64,000 nt of DNA. It comes from an uncultured virus (IMG/VR IMGVR_UViG_3300025000_000085). Its lineage: Duplodnaviria; Heunggongvirae; Uroviricota; Caudoviricetes. Within the stretch, counting starts at the first letter, position 1, and every line of letters begins with the position of its first letter. A program made the translations under genes and the position numbers. Under the pieces are notes generated by a model. It worked only from the letters and a program-made list of their open reading frames with translations, was not told the DNA's origin and did not search any database. Location of the stretch: IMG/VR virus record IMGVR_UViG_3300025000_000085; one strand, given 5' to 3'. This document shows, in pieces, positions 291-64,000 of this stretch.

Positions 291-682
291 CCGACGATGC
301 TGGTGCCCGCCGGTGCGTGCTGCGCCACAAGAGCGGTGGCGCCCAGGCGGTCGCCGCAGAAGATCACGGTGCCCGAGGGAAACTTCACCTTGCCGGACAG
401 CTCCACGCAGGCGGCCGCCTCGACCTCCACCACCATCCACTTTGCCTCGGCGTTCCAGCTCACCAGGTCGCCGTCTCCCTGCCCCCAGAGCAGCCCGTGC
501 AGCCCATTGCCGCACTTGGGCTTCGGGTCCCAGTCCGGGCAGCTGACCGGGCCAGACTCGGGCCACTGGAATCCGCCGTGGGCCTGCAGCTCGGCGTTGC
601 AGGTGCGCAGCACGAGAGCCTTTCCGTCGGGGAGGCAATAGAGCTGCGCTGGATTGTGCTGCTGGCTGGCTGTGTCGCTCAT
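1..682 (-). CDS. Ice-nucleation-protein-like protein: INP N-terminal domain plus octapeptide AGxxGTAT repeats (3' end off window)
   Basis: Not in ORF track. Hand translation from ATG 682 (ATGA overlap with the upstream gene): MSDTAS...KALVLRTCNAELQAHGGFQWP...NGLHGLLWGQG...AKWMVVEV...GKVKFPSGTVIFCGDR...GTATAGDRGTATAG; open to the window edge. Confidence 0.85.
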   Translation of the reverse strand, partial: MSDTASQQHNPAQLYCLPDGKALVLRTCNAELQAHGGFQWPESGPVSCPDWDPKPKCGNGLHGLLWGQGDGDLVSWNAEAKWMVVEVEAAACVELSGKVKFPSGTVIFCGDRLGATALVAQHAPAGTSIVGGTATAGTWGTATAGYSGTATAGDRGTATAGDSGTATAGDRGTATAGYSGTATAGDRGTATAGDEGTATAGDRGTATAGTWGTATAGDRGTATAGDK

Positions 683-1464
683 CGTCCGCTCCGATTGCAA
701 GGCTCGCAGTCTTTAGCCGGCACGAACTTGTGGTTGTCCGTGCGCTGATGTTCAGTGTTCCATTTGTGGTACTGGATGATTGCGCCGATGGCGCTCCATG
801 CCCTTTCGTATTGTTCTGTGCTTATCTCTGCGATGAAGATATGCCCAGACTTGCACCTGATTGTTTCTGCTCTGCTGCCGGCGACCCACCCCGTTGGCGC
901 TCCGCATTGGCAATTAACCATTTGAACAGATTTTTTTCGGTGGCTACCACATCCGTTCACAGACGGAGTCGTGAGCGCCATTTCGATTGTCCAGCCGATC
1001 CGCAATCGTCCCTTGACGTTATTTGGGCGGACTTTGTTAATCTCTGCCAATTCCGTGATCGTCTTTGTTTCGTTGTCGATAGTAGCAAAGCGATTACTTC
1101 TGGTGTTGCGCATCTGTTCGTACTGATATGCCCATCGACAATTGAACGGTTCGTAGTTTCCTTCGTTATTGATGCGGTCAATTGAATGACTAGTCGACGG
1201 CCGGAGTCCCATGTCTCCGAGAAATGCTAGGAAGCTGCTGCGCCATTCTGTGCAGACAGAAATGCCACGTTCGCCATAGTTGACGTAGGCTGGTTTTTTT
1301 GCATTGTGGCACCGTTCAATCATTTGCCGCCAAATGTTATATTCGCTCATCTTTGTGGCGCTAGTGAAGTTGCTGCGCATCGTGACGCCGGTACTTTTGG
1401 GCAGCAAAGGTTTTGCTCGTTTTTTCCTCTGCCTGTAAACCGATGTATTTTCAGCGGAACTCAT
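679..1464 (-). CDS. HNH homing-endonuclease-like protein with Cys-rich C-terminal extension
   Basis: Motifs YNIWRQMIERC..YGERGISVC..SIDRINNEGNYEPFNCRWA..N; RBS-like AAGGTAGG before ATG 1464; lower GC than flanks. Confidence 0.8.
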   Translation of the reverse strand: MSSAENTSVYRQRKKRAKPLLPKSTGVTMRSNFTSATKMSEYNIWRQMIERCHNAKKPAYVNYGERGISVCTEWRSSFLAFLGDMGLRPSTSHSIDRINNEGNYEPFNCRWAYQYEQMRNTRSNRFATIDNETKTITELAEINKVRPNNVKGRLRIGWTIEMALTTPSVNGCGSHRKKSVQMVNCQCGAPTGWVAGSRAETIRCKSGHIFIAEISTEQYERAWSAIGAIIQYHKWNTEHQRTDNHKFVPAKDCEPCNRSGR

Positions 1465-1984
1465 ATCTTGCCTACCTTTGGCGCCGTGGCACACTGGAAA
1501 GGGAGCCCGAAGGCAGCGCCGCCCGGTCTGCAGGTCGCAGGAAGGGGGCGTCGAGGGGGCAGGCATCGCCTGGGCGGATGCCTCCGGGCTGTTTTTGCCG
1601 GCGCACGAGCCGGAGAGGGGGCAATGGTGGGGCGGGGAAAGAGAAGCGCTCTGCTGGACCGTTTTGACGGTGAAGGCGGCCCATCCGCCTCGCCGGCTGC
1701 CACTGCGGGCCCCTTGGGTCCGTCGCTTCTCCTGGCCCGGCTTCGCCCTACCGCCATCGGCGCTGTCGTCGGCCGTGCACCGCAGGCATGTATTCGCCCG
1801 GTGCAGGCCTCGAGTCACCATGGACGGGACAGGCTGAGCCCCCCGGGCCGAGCATGTCTGGGGTGGGATCATCTCCAGGGTGCCGGCAGTGATTGGCCGG
1901 CGGTGCATGTAGGAAAAACCCTCCTGCCGGGGTACCCTCCGGGCAACAGAAAAACCGCCGGCACCGCCGGCAGGAGGGAAGAGC

Positions 1985-2239
1985 ATGGACGAGAAAACAC
2001 GGTTGGCCGCAGAGCTGGCAGCACAGATGATCGCAGCGCGGGCGTTCTCGCCGACGTACAGCGTCAACCTGCTGCGAGAAGGCAAAGACACGCCGGAGGA
2101 TGTGGTGCGGGCCGCACTCGACGGCATGGCGTTTGGCACTGGCGATGCGCTCGGCCGCATCTTCCAGGCGACATTCGCCCTGGTATTGGAAGCGCTGGAA
2201 GACCCGCAAGCCATCGCTCAGCGCCGCTCCAGGCAGTAA
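1985..2239 (+). CDS. Small hypothetical protein, antisense to the cro operon (paralog A, MDEKTRLAAE)
   Basis: RBS GGAGGG, 84 aa, N-terminus resembles 3083-3262. Confidence 0.7.
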   Translation: MDEKTRLAAELAAQMIAARAFSPTYSVNLLREGKDTPEDVVRAALDGMAFGTGDALGRIFQATFALVLEALEDPQAIAQRRSRQ

Positions 2240-2373
2240 CCAGGCGACCGCATCACCCACTGCACGATCTCCCGGCGCACCAGGTCGCGAATCTCGTCTG
2301 CCGCCAGTCCGGCTGGAACAACGATGGTAAGCTCGTCTCGGTCAGGCCGACTGCTGCTGCACGGTTCGGACAT
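2218..2373 (-). CDS. Small hypothetical protein (51 aa, MSEPCSSSRPDRDELTIVVP...)
   Basis: Hand translation; RBS AAGGAG; follows the 48-bp element; converges on 1985-2239. Confidence 0.55.
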   Translation of the reverse strand: MSEPCSSSRPDRDELTIVVPAGLAADEIRDLVRREIVQWVMRSPGYCLERR

Positions 2374-2394
2374 CGCTCACTCCTTCGTTGCCGT

Positions 2395-2442
2395 GGCGCC
2401 GCCCCGACGGGCAGCAGATCAGGTTCAGGCCGCGGCGCCCTG
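2395..2442 (-). repeat. 48-bp dispersed element, copy 1 (QGAAA-stop plus hairpin)
   Basis: Identical to 2953-3000; diverged copy at 3601-3651. Confidence 0.95.
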
Positions 2443-2913
2443 CGGCTGCTCCGAGCCACCTTCGGGCCGCGGCGTCTCGTCGATGAGAGAGCGAATCACC
2501 ACACCGGCCTCACGCTCCTCGTCGGTCAGCTCACAGTCGTCGCAGTTGCCCCGCAGGTCCGAGCAGTCGCCCCGCAGGCCCGAGCAGTCGCCCCACAGGC
2601 CCGAGCAGTTGCCCCACAGGCCCGAGCAGTTGCCCCGCAGGTCCGAGCAGTCGCCCCACAGGCCCGAGCAGTCGCCCTCCAGGCCCGAGCAGTTGCCCCG
2701 CAGGCCCGAGCAGTCGCCCCGCAGGCCCGAGCAGTCGCCCTCCAGGCCCGAGCAGTTGCCCTCCAGGCCCGAGCAGTCGCCCCGCAGGCCCGAGCAGTCG
2801 CCCTCCAGGCCCGAGCAGTTGCCCTCCAGGCCCGAGCAGGGTCCGTCGTGCCGGATGCCGTCGATGTAGTGGTGCAGACCGGACGTATCGCTGAGCCTCA
2901 GCGCTTTTTTCAT
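2425..2913 (-). CDS. Cys-rich heptapeptide-repeat protein (G[DN]CSGL[RWE] x ~14)
   Basis: RBS GGAGGG; 21-bp tandem repeat at ~2541-2838 flanked by unique N- and C-termini. Confidence 0.85.
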   Translation of the reverse strand: MKKALRLSDTSGLHHYIDGIRHDGPCSGLEGNCSGLEGDCSGLRGDCSGLEGNCSGLEGDCSGLRGDCSGLRGNCSGLEGDCSGLWGDCSDLRGNCSGLWGNCSGLWGDCSGLRGDCSDLRGNCDDCELTDEEREAGVVIRSLIDETPRPEGGSEQPQGAAA

Positions 2914-2952
2914 CTCACCCTCCTGGCCGGCGGCGCCGGCCGTTCGCTCTGC

Positions 2953-3000
2953 GGCGCCGCCCCGACGGGCAGCAGATCAGGTTCAGGCCGCGGCGCCCTG
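2953..3000 (-). repeat. 48-bp dispersed element, copy 2
   Basis: Exact match to 2395-2442. Confidence 0.95.
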
Positions 3001-3082
3001 GCGCTCGTTGCTGAAGCCCTCCTCCCCGTGGCAGGATGCAGATGCCCTGACCACACGCCCCGACACGGGGAGGAGAAACGAC

Positions 3083-3262
3083 ATGACAAAGGACGAAAAA
3101 ATCAAACTGGCGGCGGAGATCGGTGCACGGCTGACGACGTCGATCCACGATCGAACCAAGTACCGTGGGGAAACCTTCGAGGATCGAACGATTGCAACCT
3201 GGCTTCTCATGTCGAAAAAGGTCCTCAGTTCGTTGGACGAGTTGGAGTCCGACATCCGCTAG
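3083..3262 (+). CDS. Small hypothetical protein, antisense to the cro operon (paralog B, MTKDEKIKLAAE)
   Basis: RBS GGAGGAG; 59 aa; converges on 3259-3561. Confidence 0.7.
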   Translation: MTKDEKIKLAAEIGARLTTSIHDRTKYRGETFEDRTIATWLLMSKKVLSSLDELESDIR

Positions 3263-3561
3263 GCAAAGCGGAGCGAAAACAGTACGCTCGCCACCTGGTC
3301 ACACGCGTGCGGCGCGTCGATGAGTCCAAGATTCAGGAACAGGACTGCCCATTTCAGGGTGGTCTCGACCTGATCCCGGGCCGGACCTTTCTCTGGATGG
3401 CCGCTGGCCTTCAGGAGATCGGGCAGCTTGGCCAAGACGCCGAGGTAATGTGCAACGAGCCGCTGCTCCGGCGTTGTCGGATCGTCGAAGGAGGTCTGCT
3501 CGCTCTGCTCGCTCTGCTCGCTCTGCTCGCTCTGCTCGCTCTGCTCGCTCTGCTCGTTCAT
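3259..3561 (-). CDS. Hypothetical protein with N-terminal (EQS)n tract
   Basis: 9-bp repeat ctgctcgct x ~6-7 at ~3497-3556; RBS-like GAGAGGCGAGAG. Confidence 0.7.
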   Translation of the reverse strand: MNEQSEQSEQSEQSEQSEQSEQTSFDDPTTPEQRLVAHYLGVLAKLPDLLKASGHPEKGPARDQVETTLKWAVLFLNLGLIDAPHACDQVASVLFSLRFA

Positions 3562-3600
3562 CTCTCGCCTCTCGCCGGCCTTCCGGCGCACTCTTGGATG

Positions 3601-3651
3601 GCCGCCCCGACGGGCGGCTGTTCAGGTTCAGGCCGCCGCGCCCTGGCGCTC
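3601..3651 (-). repeat. 48-bp dispersed element, copy 3 (diverged, overlaps the cro stop codon)
   Basis: gccgccccgacgggcggctgttcaggttcaggccgccgcgccctggcgctc. Confidence 0.9.
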
Positions 3652-3942
3652 GGCGGCGGGCTCGTCTTGCCCCTCTGCGGGGGAGGGAGGGGAGGCCTCC
3701 GCGGCTGCCGACCGTTCTTTCGGTGATGAATCGGCATGTTCGGCCGCAGGAGAAGGCAACCAGGCTTCCGTTGGAATGCCGATCTTGTCCATGATGGCAT
3801 GAGCAAGAGCGAGTCCGGCGGACCGCTTGCCTGCGAGGATGAGCCAGATGGTCGGACCAGAACACCCGATCATGTGAGCCAGCTGCCTGGTGCTGAGGCC
3901 CTGTTCGGCCTGGTATTGGGCGAGTAATTCTCTCCCTGTCAT
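3628..3942 (-). CDS. Cro-like XRE HTH regulator
   Basis: GLSTRQLAHMIGCSGPTIWLILAGKR HTH; divergent from the repressor; RBS GGAGG. Confidence 0.85.
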   Translation of the reverse strand: MTGRELLAQYQAEQGLSTRQLAHMIGCSGPTIWLILAGKRSAGLALAHAIMDKIGIPTEAWLPSPAAEHADSSPKERSAAAEASPPSPAEGQDEPAAERQGAAA

Positions 3943-3963
3943 GGATGGCACCTCCGAGGTAGA

Positions 3964-4018
3964 GGAATACCCGGGCTGCTAGCGTTAGTCAACAGCGCAG
4001 TTGCTAGCCCTTGATAGC
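3964..4018. promoter_or_regulatory. cro promoter (TTGACT-N17-TATTCC, minus strand) with two 16-bp operators (3978-3993, 4003-4018)
   Basis: GCTAGCGTTAGTCAAC and GCTAGCCCTTGATAGC; same architecture at 8109-8161. Confidence 0.75.
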
Positions 4019-4030
4019 GAAGGACGTGCG

Positions 4031-4555
4031 ATGGAAGAAGACATGGTCAAGCTGGCCGAAATCGTGCGCCTCAACATCATAGAGCTGCGTCGGCAGCGCG
4101 GGATGTCTCAGGCCGACCTGTGCCGCGCGTCCGGGATCACGACTGCGGCGCTATCCCTGATTGAACGAGCGGAGCGGGCTGCCCATATCGACACCATCCA
4201 GGCTCTCGCTCGCGGCCTCGGCATCCCCCCTGATGCAATGCTCCGACCGCTCACCGCAGCAGAGCGCGGCGAGCTGGCCGAGCTGCCTCCTCCCCTGCCT
4301 CCCGACGAGCACTCCCTGCTGACCCACTACCGCATCATCTCCGCCGACGAGCAGCGCCGGGTGCGCTACCTGGCTGCGGGCTTCGCCGGCACGGCCGACC
4401 AAGTGGAGGCAGCCGTGCCCGCGCCCCCTGCTGCCCCCCCGCCCCTGCCCGAGGACGAGCAGGAGCTGCTGGAGCGGTGGCGCCAGCTCTCCGGGGAGCG
4501 GAAGGGGAGGGTGCTGGCCTACCTCGACGGGATGCTGGAGGCAGCGAAGGAATGA
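4031..4555 (+). CDS. CI-like repressor (XRE HTH) with two tandem short C-terminal helical repeats
   Basis: LRRQRGMSQADLCRASGITTAALSLIERAER; repeats LPPDEHSLLTHYR and LPEDEQELLERWR; no S24 peptidase domain seen. Confidence 0.85.
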   Translation: MEEDMVKLAEIVRLNIIELRRQRGMSQADLCRASGITTAALSLIERAERAAHIDTIQALARGLGIPPDAMLRPLTAAERGELAELPPPLPPDEHSLLTHYRIISADEQRRVRYLAAGFAGTADQVEAAVPAPPAAPPPLPEDEQELLERWRQLSGERKGRVLAYLDGMLEAAKE

Positions 4556-5037
4556 CCGACGAGGAGATCCAGCGACTCCTGCAAGAGGTCAAGCGGCCGG
4601 TCGGGCGTCCCAGGCGCTCGGTAGGCTTCGGTGAGCGCTTCGACGTCAACCTGACGGGCGCGGACACCGAAACGGCCTATGTGCTCTACGGCAGGCAGAA
4701 CTCAGAGGTGCCCGAGGACTTCCGGGTCGGCCTTCGGATTCGGCGAGCAGACAGCGCAGACCGCCAGCTGCGCACCTACAACGGCGAGGCTCACTCGCAC
4801 AACAACCCCCTCGAGGGCGAACGGTTGCCGAAGGGGTTTCACATCCACACGGCGACGCAGCGGTACCAGGCCCGCCGCAATCGACTGGACGGTTACGCCG
4901 AGGTCACGGATCGCTATAATGATCTGCGCGGTGCGCTGTCGGCCATGCTGGTGGACTGCCACATCGCTGGGTTGACCGTCGAGGAGCTGCTTCCCCCTAC
5001 CCAGGGGAGCTTGCTCGAGCTGATGGATGAAGATTGA
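4552..5037 (+). CDS. Conserved hypothetical protein, partner of the DUF1828 gene (His-rich YNG..HSHNNP..FHIH)
   Basis: ATGA-coupled to cI; overlaps the next gene. Confidence 0.7.
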   Translation: MTDEEIQRLLQEVKRPVGRPRRSVGFGERFDVNLTGADTETAYVLYGRQNSEVPEDFRVGLRIRRADSADRQLRTYNGEAHSHNNPLEGERLPKGFHIHTATQRYQARRNRLDGYAEVTDRYNDLRGALSAMLVDCHIAGLTVEELLPPTQGSLLELMDED

Positions 5038-5797
5038 CCTCCCGGATCGCATCGTTCACCTCTGTCCAGGCGTCCGGTCTGCACGGCTGCGCCAAGACGG
5101 CTGGACGGAGATCGACTCGATGTTCGCCTTCCCGGATGGCGACGAGTTCCTGATCCACGCCAAGGAGCTGCCCGGGAGCGGGCTGCGGTTCTCGGACCGG
5201 GGCCACACGCTGATGCGGCTGAGCTACGACATGGACGTGGACCAGCTGCGCAGCGGCAAGCGAGGGCGCCTCTTCGAGTCGATCTTGGCCAACCGCGAGG
5301 CAGACGGAGTGTTGCAGCTCGACGTGCCGCTGGATCAGGCCACCGAGGGGCTGTTTCGCTTCGGCCAGGCGCTGACCCAGCTGCACGACCTGAGCTTCCT
5401 CGAGCAGTCCAGGGCGGAGTTCACCTTTTACAGCGATCTCCGCTCGCTGCTGGATTCCATCGTCCCGGCCAGCCTGGTGCAACCGGACTTCGTCGTGCCC
5501 CAGATCGAGCACGGCGAAGACTACCCGATAGACTTCCGGATCGAGGGGAAGCTCGACCCGCTCTTCCTCTTCGGCATCCCCGGGCGAGACAAGGCCCGGC
5601 TGGTCACCATCGTGCTCGAGCACCTGCTGCGGGCAAGCGTGCCCTTCGAGTCGTTGCTCGTCTTCGCCAACCAGGAGGAGCTTCCGCGAAGGGACCTCGC
5701 CCGGCTCTCCAACGTCGGCGGTGAGATGGTGGCGTCGCTCGGCGCCATGGACGACCTCCGGCGCAAGCTGTCGCGCAGGGTCCCCGCCCTCGCATGA
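5027..5797 (+). CDS. DUF1828-family-like protein
   Basis: I.S.F.FPDGD...FSDRGHTLMRLSY N-terminal motif; C-terminal YPIDF.IE region. Confidence 0.7.
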   Translation: MKIDLPDRIVHLCPGVRSARLRQDGWTEIDSMFAFPDGDEFLIHAKELPGSGLRFSDRGHTLMRLSYDMDVDQLRSGKRGRLFESILANREADGVLQLDVPLDQATEGLFRFGQALTQLHDLSFLEQSRAEFTFYSDLRSLLDSIVPASLVQPDFVVPQIEHGEDYPIDFRIEGKLDPLFLFGIPGRDKARLVTIVLEHLLRASVPFESLLVFANQEELPRRDLARLSNVGGEMVASLGAMDDLRRKLSRRVPALA

Positions 5798-20528: not shown

Positions 20529-22082
20529 ATGGGCACCGAGACGACCCCACGCACCCCTCGCCCCTACCGTCGCCGCGGCAACCTCGTGCTCGTGCCACCG
20601 CCCCAGGGGCTGTCCCATCTCACCCTCGCCGCGCTGCTGACCGTGGAGGTCCTGCGCGACCTGGGCTCCCGCTGCACCGGGGCCGGCCGGGGCGCGCTCT
20701 CCAACTACCTCGGCTACCTCGCCGACAGCTTCCGCAGCGGCACGCAGGACGAGCAGGTGCAGCAGGCCCGGCGGGAGTTCGACGACTGGTGCTCGTTCAA
20801 CCTGCCTCGGGTGCCCTTTCCGGAGCCCCGGGGCATCCTGGCCGAGGATGCAGTCCCCAAGATCGGCGAGCTGCTCGGGCTGAGCAGGCAGGGGGCGGCC
20901 ATCGCCGTCGTCCCGCCAGCGCAGGTCCCGGTGGCACCCCTCGCAGCCCAGCAACAGGCCATGATCCGCCTCTGCCGGGTCTTCGAGGGCAACCCCTTCA
21001 CCACCCTCATCTGGAAGGACGAGCCCGTCTGGGTCTGCGTCCAGGTCGGGCGGTGGCTGGAGTACAGCGCGGACGGACGGAGGCTGGCCAAGCTGATCGC
21101 TGACGAGTGGTCCGAGGAGTTCAAGGAGGGAACCCACTACCAGGTACTCCAGAACGGCGCTCTCGCCGAGTTCAAGGAGCTCGTCCGGAAGGCCGGAGAG
21201 GAGTCCGACGACGACGATGGTGGTCCGTCCGACGGACCTGGTGAAAAGCTGACGCGCGCCTCCCGCCTCCTCCTCCTGACCGAGCTGGGCTTCTACAAGG
21301 TGTGCATGAAGTCGGGCAAGCCGGTGGGGTCGCGGCTGATGGACTTCGCGGCGGAGATGCTGCGGGAGTACCGCAAGACCGGCGCCTACGTCCCGGCCGG
21401 CCAGGCCCCTGCCCAGCCCATCCGCCCGGCCCACCCCCAGCAGCCCTCCTCCATCCCCGGCCCCTCCCCCTCCTTCGCCGCCGGCCCCGCCCCCTCCTTC
21501 GCCCCCTCCTCCGGGGACCCCTGGGCGCCGATGGTGATCGAGCAGCTCGCCGGCCGGGACGAGGTGCGGCTGGAGGAGCTGACCTCGGCGGTCTCGGAGC
21601 AGCTCGGGGTGGACGACGGCTGGCACGCCAAGATGCGCATCACGGCCATCCTGCACGCCGCCGGCTGGACCCGGCGAAACCGGCGCGTGGGTGGGGAGGT
21701 GTACAAGGCCTGGCTGGCGCCGTGGCACTCGCTGGCTGGTCCGTCCGCCCCCTATGCCCCCGGGAAGATGGCGCGCTTCATCGCCCAGGGCTACGCCACG
21801 CAGGCCCAGCAGCTCGAGCAGCTCGGCCCTTACGCTCAGCCCCAGCACTACCTGCAGGACCCGGGCCCGCCCCCGCGCCCGCAGCGCCCGGCGCCGGTGC
21901 AGCTCTCCGCCGCCGAGGTGGACCTGAACAATCGGCGCTACCGGGCCGGCCTCGCCCAGCGAGTGGCCAACCGGCTCTACAAGGATGGGGCGATCACCCG
22001 GGAGGAGTGGCGGGCTCGGCTCGACAAGGCGGTGGCGATGGGCACCGGGGAAGAGATGCCTGGGGCGGAGACGAAGAAGTAG
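20529..22082 (+). CDS. Bro-N domain antirepressor-like multidomain protein
   Basis: FEGNPFTTLIWKDEPVWVCVQVG..LLLTELGFYKVCMKSGKP..EMLREYRKTGAY. Confidence 0.8.
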   Translation: MGTETTPRTPRPYRRRGNLVLVPPPQGLSHLTLAALLTVEVLRDLGSRCTGAGRGALSNYLGYLADSFRSGTQDEQVQQARREFDDWCSFNLPRVPFPEPRGILAEDAVPKIGELLGLSRQGAAIAVVPPAQVPVAPLAAQQQAMIRLCRVFEGNPFTTLIWKDEPVWVCVQVGRWLEYSADGRRLAKLIADEWSEEFKEGTHYQVLQNGALAEFKELVRKAGEESDDDDGGPSDGPGEKLTRASRLLLLTELGFYKVCMKSGKPVGSRLMDFAAEMLREYRKTGAYVPAGQAPAQPIRPAHPQQPSSIPGPSPSFAAGPAPSFAPSSGDPWAPMVIEQLAGRDEVRLEELTSAVSEQLGVDDGWHAKMRITAILHAAGWTRRNRRVGGEVYKAWLAPWHSLAGPSAPYAPGKMARFIAQGYATQAQQLEQLGPYAQPQHYLQDPGPPPRPQRPAPVQLSAAEVDLNNRRYRAGLAQRVANRLYKDGAITREEWRARLDKAVAMGTGEEMPGAETKK

Positions 22083-22084
22083 CC

Positions 22085-22972
22085 TTATTTCGGCGGAGAC
22101 AGCTGAGCCGGCGCTTCTACAGCGGCAAGCAGAAGTTCGGCAGTGCTCGGAGGCAAGGCCCCTTTCTTCACTTTCCCATCGAGGTATGCCGGGAACTTGA
22201 TGGGAATGTAGTCCCGGTGCATCCACGTCCTGAAGTTTCCCAGAGCGCTGACTGGATAGACCCAGATGTCCTGCGGGTTGGACAAAGCCTGCGGAAAGTA
22301 GTTTGGGTAGTTGTGCTCGTGCTTGATGCGCTTCCCGTGCTCAGCCTCCAAGCTGTTTGCCGTCCAGTGCTTGCTCCATGCCTGCCCGACGCTGATGTCG
22401 GGCACTGTATGAGCGTCAATGCGCAAACCCTTCTGGATGGCCAGCAGGGTGAACTCGGACATCTCCCGAAAGACGCTGAAGTAGCCGACTGGGAGGATGT
22501 GAAGAGCGAGCCGGTCGTGGAACTCCCGCCATGGCTGCGGGACCAGATTGTTCGGATCGTACCCGATAGCCCCGTAGACGAACAGGCGGAACCCGGCGCG
22601 GCCGAGAATACGGTAGTTCGCCAACGCCTCTTGCTTGTTGAGCTCGAAGGCGTAGTACTCCAGGAAGGCCATCACGACTCGCTCGGGGTAAGCGAGCGCT
22701 TCCGCTCCCACGCCGGTTCCGGCTGGCAGCTTCGTAGGGACGGCGATGCGCGGCTCATCGAACCCTGTCGAAGCGAGGAGCCGAGCGAACTTGCCGGTGC
22801 GCACCCCGGCCTCCCATAGGTCCTTGTGCTCCCGGATCGTCTTCTGGTCCACGCCGCAGAGGCGTGCGAGGCTCCGTCCGGTCAGGAACGCCGTGCCGTC
22901 CTTCAGTACACCCATCTCCAGGTTGTTCACTGTGCGCTGGGCTACAATTTCAGGTATCTCCAACTGCTTCAT
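22085..22972 (-). CDS. bstA: BstA-family abortive-infection (phage defence) protein
   Basis: EMGVL.DGTAFLT.R.LARLCGV; AFLEYYAFE; FHDR; GYFSVF.E; PDISVG; HEHNYP.YFPQA.SNPQ; KFP.YL (motifs recalled from the BstA family). Confidence 0.8.
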   Translation of the reverse strand: MKQLEIPEIVAQRTVNNLEMGVLKDGTAFLTGRSLARLCGVDQKTIREHKDLWEAGVRTGKFARLLASTGFDEPRIAVPTKLPAGTGVGAEALAYPERVVMAFLEYYAFELNKQEALANYRILGRAGFRLFVYGAIGYDPNNLVPQPWREFHDRLALHILPVGYFSVFREMSEFTLLAIQKGLRIDAHTVPDISVGQAWSKHWTANSLEAEHGKRIKHEHNYPNYFPQALSNPQDIWVYPVSALGNFRTWMHRDYIPIKFPAYLDGKVKKGALPPSTAELLLAAVEAPAQLSPPK

Positions 22973-36805: not shown

Positions 36806-38046
36806 CAGCGCACCGCCTCCGGAGCGTCCTTGGCGTCCGGCACCCTGTTGGCCGTGATGTCCATGGCGAAGGCGAGGTCGCCGCCGCCCCAGACATCCTC
36901 GACCGACGTGATCATGTAGCGGCCGTCGAGGCGGCTGGACATGCCGCGCAGCAGGTGAAGGCCCCACGGCATCAGGGTCTCGACGCCGACCACGGCGGCC
37001 TCCAGGGAGACGAAGGCCAGCTGCTGCTCCCGGAAGAGCGCCAGCCCGTAGGCTGCTGCCTCTTCGCCGTTGCGGAACATCAGGTGCCCGAGGAAGGCGT
37101 CCCGGCCGCCGAAGGCAGTGACCGCAATGGCGGCGCCATCCTTGATCTCCTGCTCGATCTTGGCCTTGCCGGCCTGCCCGACGAACAGCACCGAGGGGGC
37201 GCTGGACTGCTCGGTGAGCTGGATCACGATCTCCCGCTCCTCGCCGGCGGTCAGGTCGGTGTAGCGCAGCACCATCTTGGATGGCATGCCCTTGAGCGAC
37301 GGGGTCGCCTCGAAGCGCCGCAGCGTGGCGTGCCACTCGCCACCGTCGTCGTAGTAGGGGACGAAGTTGAAGATCACCTCCTCCTGCGTCGGGTCCACGG
37401 TGAACGGCTGGAAGTGCAGCACGTCTGCCCCTCGCCCGCCGCGGGCGTTGGGGTCGAAGCGCACCCACCAGCGGTACGCCGCGCCCTCCCGGTTGCGGGC
37501 GGTGCGCGCCAGCTCGTCGAGGAAGGTGAAGTCCGAGGTGCCGGCCACCTTCACCCGGGGCTTGCTGCGCGGCAGCGTGCCCGTGTCGATGTCGGCGTCC
37601 AGCCCGTGCGTGGCCGCCAGGGTGGCAACGATCTCATGGTCCAGCGTCTTGGCGTCGGCTGCGAAGGGGTCCGTGTGCGAGGCCAGCCGGTGGTCGGCGG
37701 TGAGCCCGGTGGCCTCCAGGGTGCGGCCGCCTGCGCCCCCGCGGACGGCAGGCAGCATCAGCTCGAAACGGCCTCGGCAGATCGGCGGGCGGAGCGACCC
37801 GCCGCTGACCCAGTACTCGATCATGTTCCCTTCGGCGAAGGCCTTGCCGTCGATTATCTCGGCCGTCGCCTGGCCATCGACGAGCTCGTCGACGGTGAGC
37901 TGCAGCATGCCCGCCTTGTCGACGTCGAAGCGCACCCGGGGTCCGCCGCGGATGTGCCGCAGGTAGTCGTCCCGCAACCTGGTGCCCTCGACCCGCAGCT
38001 CGTAGTACGGCTCGTGGCCGACGGGGATCTGGGCCAACGTCGCCAT
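36805..38046 (-). CDS. Baseplate hub (P2 gpD / T4 gp27-like)
   Basis: SDFTFLDELAR, LHFQP, LDGRYMITSV. Confidence 0.75.
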   Translation of the reverse strand: MATLAQIPVGHEPYYELRVEGTRLRDDYLRHIRGGPRVRFDVDKAGMLQLTVDELVDGQATAEIIDGKAFAEGNMIEYWVSGGSLRPPICRGRFELMLPAVRGGAGGRTLEATGLTADHRLASHTDPFAADAKTLDHEIVATLAATHGLDADIDTGTLPRSKPRVKVAGTSDFTFLDELARTARNREGAAYRWWVRFDPNARGGRGADVLHFQPFTVDPTQEEVIFNFVPYYDDGGEWHATLRRFEATPSLKGMPSKMVLRYTDLTAGEEREIVIQLTEQSSAPSVLFVGQAGKAKIEQEIKDGAAIAVTAFGGRDAFLGHLMFRNGEEAAAYGLALFREQQLAFVSLEAAVVGVETLMPWGLHLLRGMSSRLDGRYMITSVEDVWGGGDLAFAMDITANRVPDAKDAPEAVR

Positions 38047-38930
38047 CAGAGCGGCACCTTGCGGCCGGCGGCCCTGGAGGCCAGGTGGGCCCGGTACGCT
38101 GCAGCGAAGGCACCCTTCCCGTCATCGGTGAAGGCCGCAGAGGAAAATCCGGGCCCCCGCATGCTGGGGTGGTCCCGGTCCACCACCAGCACGCGGGCGC
38201 CGGAACTGAGAATGCCGCCGAAGTGCTCGACGTCCCGCTGCCGCAGGTAGACGCCGAGGTAGGGGTCGCCGAGCTCGTGCGCAGCGATCAGCTCGTGCGT
38301 GTCGCCCGGGCCGGCTGCCACCTCCACGCTCTCAGGGAGCGGGGCCCCGGGGTCGGTGACCTGCAGGTACTGGTCGACCACCTGCACCATGGACAGGCGA
38401 ACGTAGACCTCGGCCAGCCGGCCGGTGATGCTGTTGACCCGCTTGATCGTGTAGGGCGCGCCGAGCACGAAGACGTCTCGGCTCCACTCGGACCCGAAGG
38501 AGAAGCGGCAGCGGGGCGGGCGACGCAGCTTCGGGTTGCGCTTTGCGAGGGCCTCGAGCTGCTGCAGCTCGGCGCGCACGTCGTCCTTCTGGATGAAGCT
38601 GCCACCGGTCAGCAGGGCCCCCAGGTTGAGGTCAGGGATGAAGGGCGTGGTGTCGTGCAGCTCGATGCCGACGGTCACCCGGTCGCTCTTGCCGCCGAGG
38701 AACTGCACCAGCTCGCCCTGGTCGCCGAGCCCCTGGCCGATGGCGTAGCTCGCCGAGACGTCGACATCGACGCCATCCCGGGGGGGGAAGCGCCCAGCAA
38801 TCTCGAAAGGCACCTGGGGATCCAGGCTGCGCAGCGTCCACTGCCCGCCGCCCTCGAGCAGCCGGAGCAACGATCCAGCGGCTGCGCCGCCAAGGGCATA
38901 GAGATCCGAAGCCGGGCTGACCGGCCTCAC
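38046..38930 (-). CDS. Tail tube initiator with LysM/gpX-like domain
   Basis: RPPRCRFSFG; GDTHELIAAHELGD. Confidence 0.65.
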   Translation of the reverse strand: MRPVSPASDLYALGGAAAGSLLRLLEGGGQWTLRSLDPQVPFEIAGRFPPRDGVDVDVSASYAIGQGLGDQGELVQFLGGKSDRVTVGIELHDTTPFIPDLNLGALLTGGSFIQKDDVRAELQQLEALAKRNPKLRRPPRCRFSFGSEWSRDVFVLGAPYTIKRVNSITGRLAEVYVRLSMVQVVDQYLQVTDPGAPLPESVEVAAGPGDTHELIAAHELGDPYLGVYLRQRDVEHFGGILSSGARVLVVDRDHPSMRGPGFSSAAFTDDGKGAFAAAYRAHLASRAAGRKVPL

Positions 38931-48848: not shown

Positions 48849-48911
48849 GGGCTCAGCTCCGTGGCCGGGAGGGCGGTACCGGAAGGGCGCCGCCCTCCCG
48901 GCGGGTCAGGA

Positions 48912-63834: not shown

Positions 63835-64000
63835 TGTTCAATCCTTCCCGGGATGTACCCCTGTTCCCCTTGTGTACCCCATCTTTTTTGGAGAAGGGGT
63901 ACATGTTTTCCTTTGAAATTTCCGGCAGTTATATCCGATGTAACCCTGTACCCCTTCTTTTCCGGAAAAAAGACCCTGCTAGAAGAAACACGAAGAGGTG

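Follow-up and report, generated by a model that had tools for sequence, protein, structure and literature searches.

How might the expression of two small genes be controlled when both lie, in the opposite orientation, within a single row of phage genes and both carry a perfect palindrome over the ribosome-binding site (RBS)? This question is raised by one end of IMGVR_UViG_3300025000_000085, an uncultured tailed phage of 71 kb, most of which is represented by the 64-kb stretch of DNA analysed here and referred to as the window. Two plus-strand open reading frames (ORFs), P84 (1985-2239, 84 amino acids) and P59 (3083-3262, 59 amino acids), lie antisense within a minus-strand gene row that an earlier note on this DNA had called an early operon, a label that is an assumption. 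Each ORF is preceded by a 12-bp inverted repeat whose right arm contains the Shine-Dalgarno (SD) sequence. We tentatively favour a double RNA-level lock, in which a cis hairpin over the SD and antisense overlap by the minus-strand operon would both keep P84 and P59 off.

Two palindromes built over Shine-Dalgarno sequences

Both inverted repeats described in the earlier note were confirmed as perfect over 12 bp. In hairpin 1, the 5′ arm CCCTCCTGCCGG (1919-1930, plus strand) is an anti-SD, and the 3′ arm CCGGCAGGAGGG (1967-1978) carries the SD AGGAGG at 1972-1977; the loop is 36 nt long and the stem ends 6 nt before the ATG at 1985. Hairpin 2 has the same organization, with the anti-SD arm CTCCTCCCCGTG at 3019-3030, the arm CACGGGGAGGAG at 3064-3075 carrying the SD GGAGG (3069-3073), a loop of 33 nt and a stem that ends 7 nt before the ATG at 3083. 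The outer halves of the stems (SD/anti-SD) are alike in both copies. The inner halves differ (GCCGG/CCGGC versus CCCCGTG/CACGGGG) and are still complementary, in agreement with the earlier remark that the stems differ in sequence yet both pair. This combination of a common geometry, with the stem built from the SD and ending 6-7 nt before the ATG, and of differing but complementary inner halves argues that the pairing of the SD is what is kept in both copies.

Such repeats are rare in this DNA. The window contains four perfect inverted repeats of at least 12 bp with loops of 3-60 nt, against a mean of 0.7 in 200 first-order Markov simulations, only one of which reached four. Among all sites on both strands that combine an SD with a start codon, hairpins 1 and 2 form the longest Watson-Crick stems over the SD. 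The sole longer SD stem (13 bp, including G-U pairing) is formed by the mirror arm of hairpin 1 in front of a doubtful minus-strand ATG at 1908, and all others reach at most 10 bp. No further copies of the hairpin repeats were found in the window. Integron attC sites and miniature inverted-repeat transposable element (MITE)-like repeats were considered and rejected, as other copies are lacking and no attC-like core was apparent on reading the sequence. Scans for Rfam families and transfer RNAs returned none.

The folding of the plus-strand leaders was also in line with the earlier note. Minimum energies were −38.1 kcal/mol for hairpin 1 (z −3.9) and −29.8 kcal/mol for hairpin 2 (z −3.2), with −27.9 and −25.8 kcal/mol for the stems alone, and both SDs were paired. 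In silico, the SD paired with the same arm at a probability of 1.0 in plus-strand contexts of both 460 and 260 nt, so that, according to these models, an RNA containing the 5′ arm should be essentially untranslatable. In hypothetical transcripts starting in the loops, SD pairing dropped to 0.35-0.45. The exception was a hairpin 1 transcript starting at 1931, which kept an SD pairing of 0.85 through a second plus-strand copy of the anti-SD CCCTCC in the loop (1935-1940), overlapping the hexamer TACCCT (1933-1938).

The two other perfect repeats of at least 12 bp lie far from this locus: a 13-bp repeat, GCCGGGAGGGCGG, between two structural genes (48864-48902), and a 12-bp repeat, AGAAGGGGTACA, near the right end (63892-63958), next to which is a related repeat of 10 bp. 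The arm of hairpin 1 has a mirror copy (CCGGCAGGAGGG) 10 nt before the minus-strand ATG at 1908, and the frame opened by this ATG runs unbroken into the ORF of an HNH endonuclease gene, giving 409 codons. As a gene start this ATG is probably unused, since the extension scores −0.141 per codon and its translation looks non-coding.

Two small plus-strand genes with a common N-terminus

P84 and P59 look like real genes by several sequence measures. When scored by a codon model for which 14 long window ORFs served as the training set, each was locally the best of the six frames (log-likelihood +0.108 per codon for P84 and +0.051 for P59), and the overlapping antisense frames scored negative. Both have a GGAGG-type SD 7-9 nt before the ATG. 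BLASTP aligned only their first 17 residues (47% identity, E 4e-4), within which lies the motif DEK-x-(R/K)-LAAE-(L/I). Eight residues are identical over 13 codons, four of them with synonymous third-base differences, which is a pattern of protein-level constraint. The motif does not occur elsewhere in the six-frame translation of the window. The two cassettes can accordingly be called paralogous, as had been proposed, in their leader layout and in their first ~13-17 codons, but not beyond: the rest of the two proteins is unlike, and their convergent partners D and G show no similarity to each other (E 3.0).

AlphaFold, run without an alignment, gave all-helical models for both proteins, a five-helix model for P84 and a helical hairpin for P59 (mean predicted local distance difference test scores, pLDDT, of 73 and 76). 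The maximal Kyte-Doolittle mean over 19 residues was 1.06 for P84 and 0.63 for P59, and the grand average of hydropathy was −0.13 and −0.55, respectively. For both, a soluble, all-helical protein is predicted. When the P84 model was compared with PDB and BFVD, no fold matched at E ≤0.001, and the top scores in the ESM Atlas (0.76-0.79) were below lead level. PADLOC, Pfam and PHROGs contained no match for P84, P59, D or G. No relatives of P84 or P59 were detected in viral contigs. Among 5.8 billion protein clusters, P84 retrieved only metagenome copies that are 99-100% identical, one of which (P0001) has a T36P change. P59 retrieved only itself from 1.84 billion representatives and the same 5.8 billion clusters, once two repeat-driven matches had been discounted.

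Antisense layout and minus-strand RNA

The minus-strand row is headed by H, an HTH_31 regulator gene (3628-3942), which diverges at about 3950-4030 from I, a plus-strand HTH_3 gene (4031-4555) identified in the Pfam and PHROGs scans. Leftward from H follow copy 3 of a 53-nt direct repeat, G, P59 (plus), hairpin 2, repeat copy 2, E and repeat copy 1. Beyond this copy come D, P84 (plus), hairpin 1, a spacer of ~450 nt, the HNH gene and a DUF7666/DUF4774 repeat protein. P59 is flanked by co-oriented minus-strand genes (G-[P59]-E), and P84 is preceded by D (D-[P84]). The tail-to-tail overlaps reported earlier were confirmed: P84 and D (2218-2373) share 22 nt, and P59 and G (3259-3561) share 4 nt, the stop codons of both lying in the same CTAG. 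An antisense switch fits this gene layout.

As a perfect palindrome gives the same stem in the RNA of both strands, the hairpins also have to be read on the minus strand. The earlier note missed these copies and the terminator-like look of hairpin 1. On the minus strand the folds reach −42.7 kcal/mol for hairpin 1 and −37.7 kcal/mol for hairpin 2. Among 44 terminator-like sites scored in the window, hairpin 1 (−42.1 kcal/mol, then TTTTTCCT) comes second in strength and is intergenic; its minus-strand 3′ arm is the complement of 1919-1930 and is followed by UUUUUCC (1918-1912). Nested within it is a second minus-strand terminator-like hairpin (1945-1973), whose stem-loop runs from 1973 to 1955 and is continued by TTTTTCTGTT (1954 to 1945). 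It has 8 bp followed by UUUUUCUGUU and includes a U-G pair, in place of which the plus strand would have a C-A mismatch. Considering these U-tracts, hairpin 1 is likely to be the intrinsic terminator of the leftward operon, judged on sequence features. A GC-rich hairpin with an immediate U-tract downstream of the last gene was found for hairpin 1 only. Hairpin 2 is followed by a U-tract on neither strand, and the stretch 2914-3082 contains no TANNNT hexamer in either direction, in agreement with a transcript that would continue from G into E; P59 would then be an antisense gene embedded in the operon.

The spacer to the left of hairpin 1 (1465-1918) contains no convincing coding frame, and its RNA structure was not unusual (z −0.5 and −0.8). 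A terminator-like hairpin of the plus strand lies within it at 1568-1599. The strongest terminator-like hairpin of the window, at 38148 on the minus strand (−46.6 kcal/mol, then TTTTCCTC), is found inside a predicted gene (38046-38930), just upstream of the tape-measure region.

A double lock and its alternatives

In the double lock that we tentatively favour, a plus-strand transcript carrying the 5′ arm would fold the GC-rich 12-bp stem over the SD and ribosomes would fail to load. For translation, the transcript would have to begin within the hairpin, as with late and homing-endonuclease genes of T4, or the stem would have to be opened by RNA processing, by a pairing RNA or by a protein, for example. 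In trans, P84 and P59 being antisense within the minus-strand row H-G-[P59]-E-D-[P84], a leftward transcript would cover each small gene whole, RBS included, making expression mutually exclusive in the manner of a noncontiguous operon or excludon. The palindrome would also act on the minus-strand RNA, where hairpin 1 and its U-tracts would end the leftward operon; with a terminator in this position, the antisense RNA would stop just beyond the RBS of P84 and cover all of the gene. The products of P84 and P59 may need to be off while the leftward operon is on. The earlier idea of a duplicated module under RNA-level control is reasonable in its general form: the pairing is real and beyond chance, it occurs in two copies and the genes are antisense. 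Its more specific versions fared less well, as described below.

Several observations weigh against the double lock. The energies predicted for opening the two RBSs (16.5 and 16.7 kcal/mol) stand no higher than sixth and seventh among 71 starts, so buried RBSs are common predictions in a phage with 68% G+C. No relatives were found in the viral, metagenome and genome collections searched, and the metagenome contigs that cover hairpin 1 (from four DNA runs, on 340-2470) are identical to the window and carry no information on covariation. The stems, having no mismatches, could be evolutionarily young, and the geometry common to both hairpins could have been inherited from one duplication. One copy of P84 (P0002, on a single Joint Genome Institute (JGI) contig) is frameshifted after residue 52, owing either to faulty assembly or to weak constraint on the gene. 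Scans for sigma-70-like sites gave none in 1300-4200, with a consensus that may not be that of the host. TACCCT in the loop of hairpin 1 is the only plus-strand TANNNT near P84, and no such hexamer occurs on either strand in 2914-3082, with the same proviso on the consensus. Even the divergent region between H and I, which must hold promoters, has just one TANNNT and no good matches. Any argument from promoters is therefore weak and consensus scans are uninformative here. Finally, both hairpins fold more stably on the minus strand than on the plus strand, and selection may act on the minus-strand RNA, with the burial of the SD as a by-product.

This last point can be extended into an account in which the palindromes were selected for the minus-strand RNA only and their overlap with the SD results from tight packing. 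Hairpin 1 would be a terminator and hairpin 2 a 3′-end stabiliser, a processing site (for RNase III, for example) or a terminator without Us, and the messages of P84 and P59 would start inside the loops and be freely translated. We regard this as unlikely, although it is to be taken seriously. The U-tracts after hairpin 1, and the U-G pair of the nested hairpin, exist solely in the minus-strand RNA, in which hairpin 2 is also extended by an additional U-G pair, and the one candidate hexamer near P84 sits in the loop from which such a message would start. However, hairpin 2 has no U-tract, and the ~450 nt of apparently non-coding DNA to the left of hairpin 1 offered room for a terminator clear of the SD. 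Neither would this account lead one to expect, in two places, a stem made from the SD and stopping 6-7 nt short of the ATG, though descent from a duplicated leader could explain the geometry. The opposite simplification, that P84 and P59 are not genes at all and merely part of an untranslated leftward-operon RNA, we consider improbable. The palindromes would then be structural or act at the DNA level, for instance as young template-switch quasi-palindromes or as sites for proteins or recombination. Long spurious ORFs are plentiful in GC-rich DNA, both ORFs are orphans, the known copies of P84 are near-identical with one frameshifted, and the stems lack any mismatch. Set against this are the plus-strand frames that score best of six, the canonical SD spacing and ATG, the N-terminal peptide that differs by synonymous changes, and the helical models obtained from single sequences (mean pLDDT 73 and 76). 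Arms 33-36 bp apart are unlike operators, and a mobile repeat would be expected in other copies.

The two systems that the earlier note had named are harder to reconcile with the data. If the cassettes were modules of the type I toxin-antitoxin kind, P84 and P59 would be toxic, their primary transcripts inert, and the antisense RNA would come from the convergent minus-strand units, serving post-segregational killing or abortive infection. SD sequestration and convergent overlapping transcription are typical of type I systems, several of which are prophage-borne according to the sections of PMC8309996 drawn on here; the modules are duplicated, and a BstA homologue elsewhere in the window shows that the phage carries defence genes. 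Nevertheless, hydrophobic or transmembrane segments are absent from both proteins, whose models are soluble and helical, so that neither membership of type I nor a classical membrane toxin is supported. P84 also exceeds 60 amino acids, the searches of PADLOC, Pfam and PHROGs gave no match, no discrete antisense small RNA (sRNA) gene was recognisable and none was found with Rfam, and the convergent partners are protein-coding. Of the earlier suggestion of type I toxin-like silencing, the SD sequestration stands and the small hydrophobic toxin does not, and we hold a type I-like module to be quite improbable, although a variant with a cytosolic toxin is conceivable. RNA thermometers that free the SD at higher temperature can hardly account for the locus. 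An SD paired in a 5′ leader hairpin is what they would require, but thermometers such as ROSE and fourU rely on a weak, mismatched SD stem that melts in the physiological range, whereas the perfect GC-rich stems found here keep the SD paired at a probability of at least 0.92 at 85 °C in silico. This led us to reject the thermometer. There was also no Rfam match, and the DNA derives from groundwater and soil metagenomes.

Should both the lock and the antisense overlap be at work, one palindrome would serve as the terminator of one unit and as the translational silencer of the opposed gene, twice in the same phage. The concept of the noncontiguous operon would thereby be extended by a layer of control in cis, and the genes involved could turn out to encode accessory proteins that have to be kept tightly off. 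A bolder version, to which we give little credence, is that a duplicated module has one palindrome for two jobs, ending the antisense operon RNA and locking the RBS of the embedded gene, so that soluble orphan proteins would stay off until a specific opener acts, for instance RNA processing, an RNA of the phage or a protein; such a module would be an undescribed kind of lysis-lysogeny checkpoint or a type I-like switch for killing or exclusion that does not involve the membrane.

The direct repeats and neighbouring genes

The gene row also contains a repeated element that the earlier note had described as 48 bp long. The element is real, but it measures 53 nt and is present in three copies, which are 96% and 83% identical to the reference copy. 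All are on the minus strand, each 27-44 nt upstream of where D, E or G begins. Each contains the last 5-7 codons of the upstream frame (...QGAAA, stop), then CCTGAACCTGA (with the motif CCTGA-A-CCTGA) and a 7-bp hairpin. Copy 1 (2395-2447) holds the last codons of E and stands upstream of D, copy 2 (2953-3005) is upstream of E and 13 nt from hairpin 2, and copy 3 (3598-3650) holds the last codons of H (...ERQGAAA, stop) and stands upstream of G. Copies 1 and 2 have a U-G pair in the repeat hairpin where copy 3 has C-G; double compensatory changes are absent. Searched as a DNA pattern, the element had no match in viral contigs. In metagenome contigs it was retrieved only from the phage of the window itself (L002 and L003), besides three chance matches in unrelated coding DNA, and genome contigs gave three matches at chance level. 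In one contig of low depth (X13 record 8, depth ~3), D and the repeat are joined to the sequence that follows copy 2 and E is skipped, which is either a natural recombinant without E or an assembly join at a 48-nt exact repeat. Another contig (X5 record 21, 757 nt) contains a diverged copy of the element followed by a variant of the anti-SD flank.

D encodes 51 amino acids, has GGAG 7 nt before its ATG and a weak codon score (−0.077 per codon). E (2425-2913, minus strand, 162 amino acids), located between both modules, is composed of at least 14 tandem 21-nt units that encode the heptad CSGL(E/R/W)G(D/N), and its only family match was to the low-complexity Pfam family MSG and looks spurious. 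G (100 amino acids, minus strand) opens with 9-nt (SEQ)n repeats (3477-3584). Further left, the DUF7666/DUF4774 protein (PHROG 18079, 1-330) has a C-terminal repeat array with a period of ~30 nt, as read from the sequence. With E, G and this gene, three neighbouring genes of the arm contain tandem coding repeats. The HNH endonuclease gene (679-1464, minus strand) has ~50% G+C compared with ~68% for the phage as a whole, which suggests a recent mobile insertion.

To the right, the HTH_3 gene is directly followed by a DUF6978-DUF1828 pair (J-K, 4552-5797, plus strand), which three viral contigs unrelated to one another have likewise kept as a pair; in PADLOC, K was in addition assigned to PDC-M24B (E 4.5e-7), a candidate defence family. 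Helicases of the RecD/Dda-like type and an exonuclease are encoded on the plus strand at ~9-14 kb. On the minus strand, PHROGs profiles identified the large terminase, head protease, tail sheath, tape measure and baseplate at ~22-61 kb. The BstA abortive-infection homologue (22085-22972, minus strand) was retrieved with PADLOC (E 3e-98) and PHROG 6287 (E 3.5e-76), and its gene ends 2 nt from the end of a convergent plus-strand gene (20529-22082). A temperate lifestyle of the phage is plausible; those window proteins that were compared with PHROGs and Pfam included no integrase.

The 3.2-kb stretch 1400-4600 was present in 16 runs, all of DNA and none of RNA, from seven studies of groundwater and soil metagenomes, and a JGI metagenome contig, offset by 17 bases, is identical to the window over the 7.6 kb compared. 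The closest virus record of the collection searched (G001) is without the region of interest, and a DNA comparison with phage GenBank records gave no match. H and J, used as single-protein queries for synteny, retrieved no related loci. An alignment-based search with J recovered three viral loci (L006-L008, the contigs with the J-K pair mentioned above), which have the J-K pair alone in common with the window and not the region of interest. A search with a degenerate anti-SD motif, directed at the related contig of run X5, returned 10 loci, all of them unrelated.

Comparison with known systems

Intrinsic (Rho-independent) terminators are formed by a GC-rich hairpin that is directly followed by a U-tract. 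The minus-strand copy of hairpin 1 resembles them in its GC-rich stem, in the UUUUU that follows, in the nested hairpin with its own U-tract and in its position after the last operon gene. It departs from them in the unusually long loop of the outer stem (36 nt) and in a stem built from the functional-looking SD of an opposite gene, and hairpin 2 differs further in having no U-tract.

Type I toxin-antitoxin systems such as hok/Sok, zorO/OrzO, bsrG/SR4 and aapA1/IsoA1 have, in the parts of PMC8309996 and PMC5416894 used here, an inert primary messenger RNA (mRNA) whose SD is held in a stem; antisense transcription is convergent or overlaps, and tandem duplication and location on phages are further features. 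The leaders of P84 and P59 both contain, in silico, a cis element that sequesters the RBS. Type I toxins are, according to the same portions of PMC8309996, usually shorter than 60 amino acids and hydrophobic, with a transmembrane helix, RalR and SymE being cytosolic exceptions. In contrast, P84 and P59 are not hydrophobic, no dedicated antitoxin sRNA is recognisable beside them, and there is no sequence or Rfam match.

The earlier note could assign the locus to no described system, but it overlooked two close analogues. In the sections of PMC2988022 consulted, the genes of I-TevI, -II and -III, segB, soc and e of phage T4 and mobE of Aeh1 have the SD in an RBS-sequestering hairpin with a late promoter inside, from which a translatable message is made. 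Long transcripts are translationally silent in those cases, which, as here, concern small accessory genes of a phage, and their consensus SD, ~7-8 nt from the AUG and buried in the 3′ arm of a highly stable hairpin, has its counterpart in the leaders of P84 and P59. The only candidate for an internal promoter here is a weak one, TACCCT in loop 1, and loop 2 offers none. Whereas the T4-type genes share the orientation of the read-through transcripts that include them, P84 and P59 run antisense to the genes around them, and homology is absent. The second analogue is the noncontiguous operon or excludon of Staphylococcus aureus, of which phage 80alpha has four, one silencing an immunity gene during lytic growth, as given in the portion of PMC11034616 consulted. 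A small opposite gene between co-oriented genes, overlapped over its whole length by the operon mRNA, is the layout described in that portion, and the arrangement of P59 and P84 corresponds to it. Co-transcription across P59 and P84 is inferred here, and neither a cis lock on the SD nor a palindrome that terminates the opposing operon is mentioned for the cases in that portion of PMC11034616. T4-type RBS-sequestering hairpins and noncontiguous operons or excludons are the closest described systems. The proposed double lock would be built from these known principles, an SD-sequestering hairpin and a noncontiguous operon, and what would be new is their doubled arrangement in an orphan locus.

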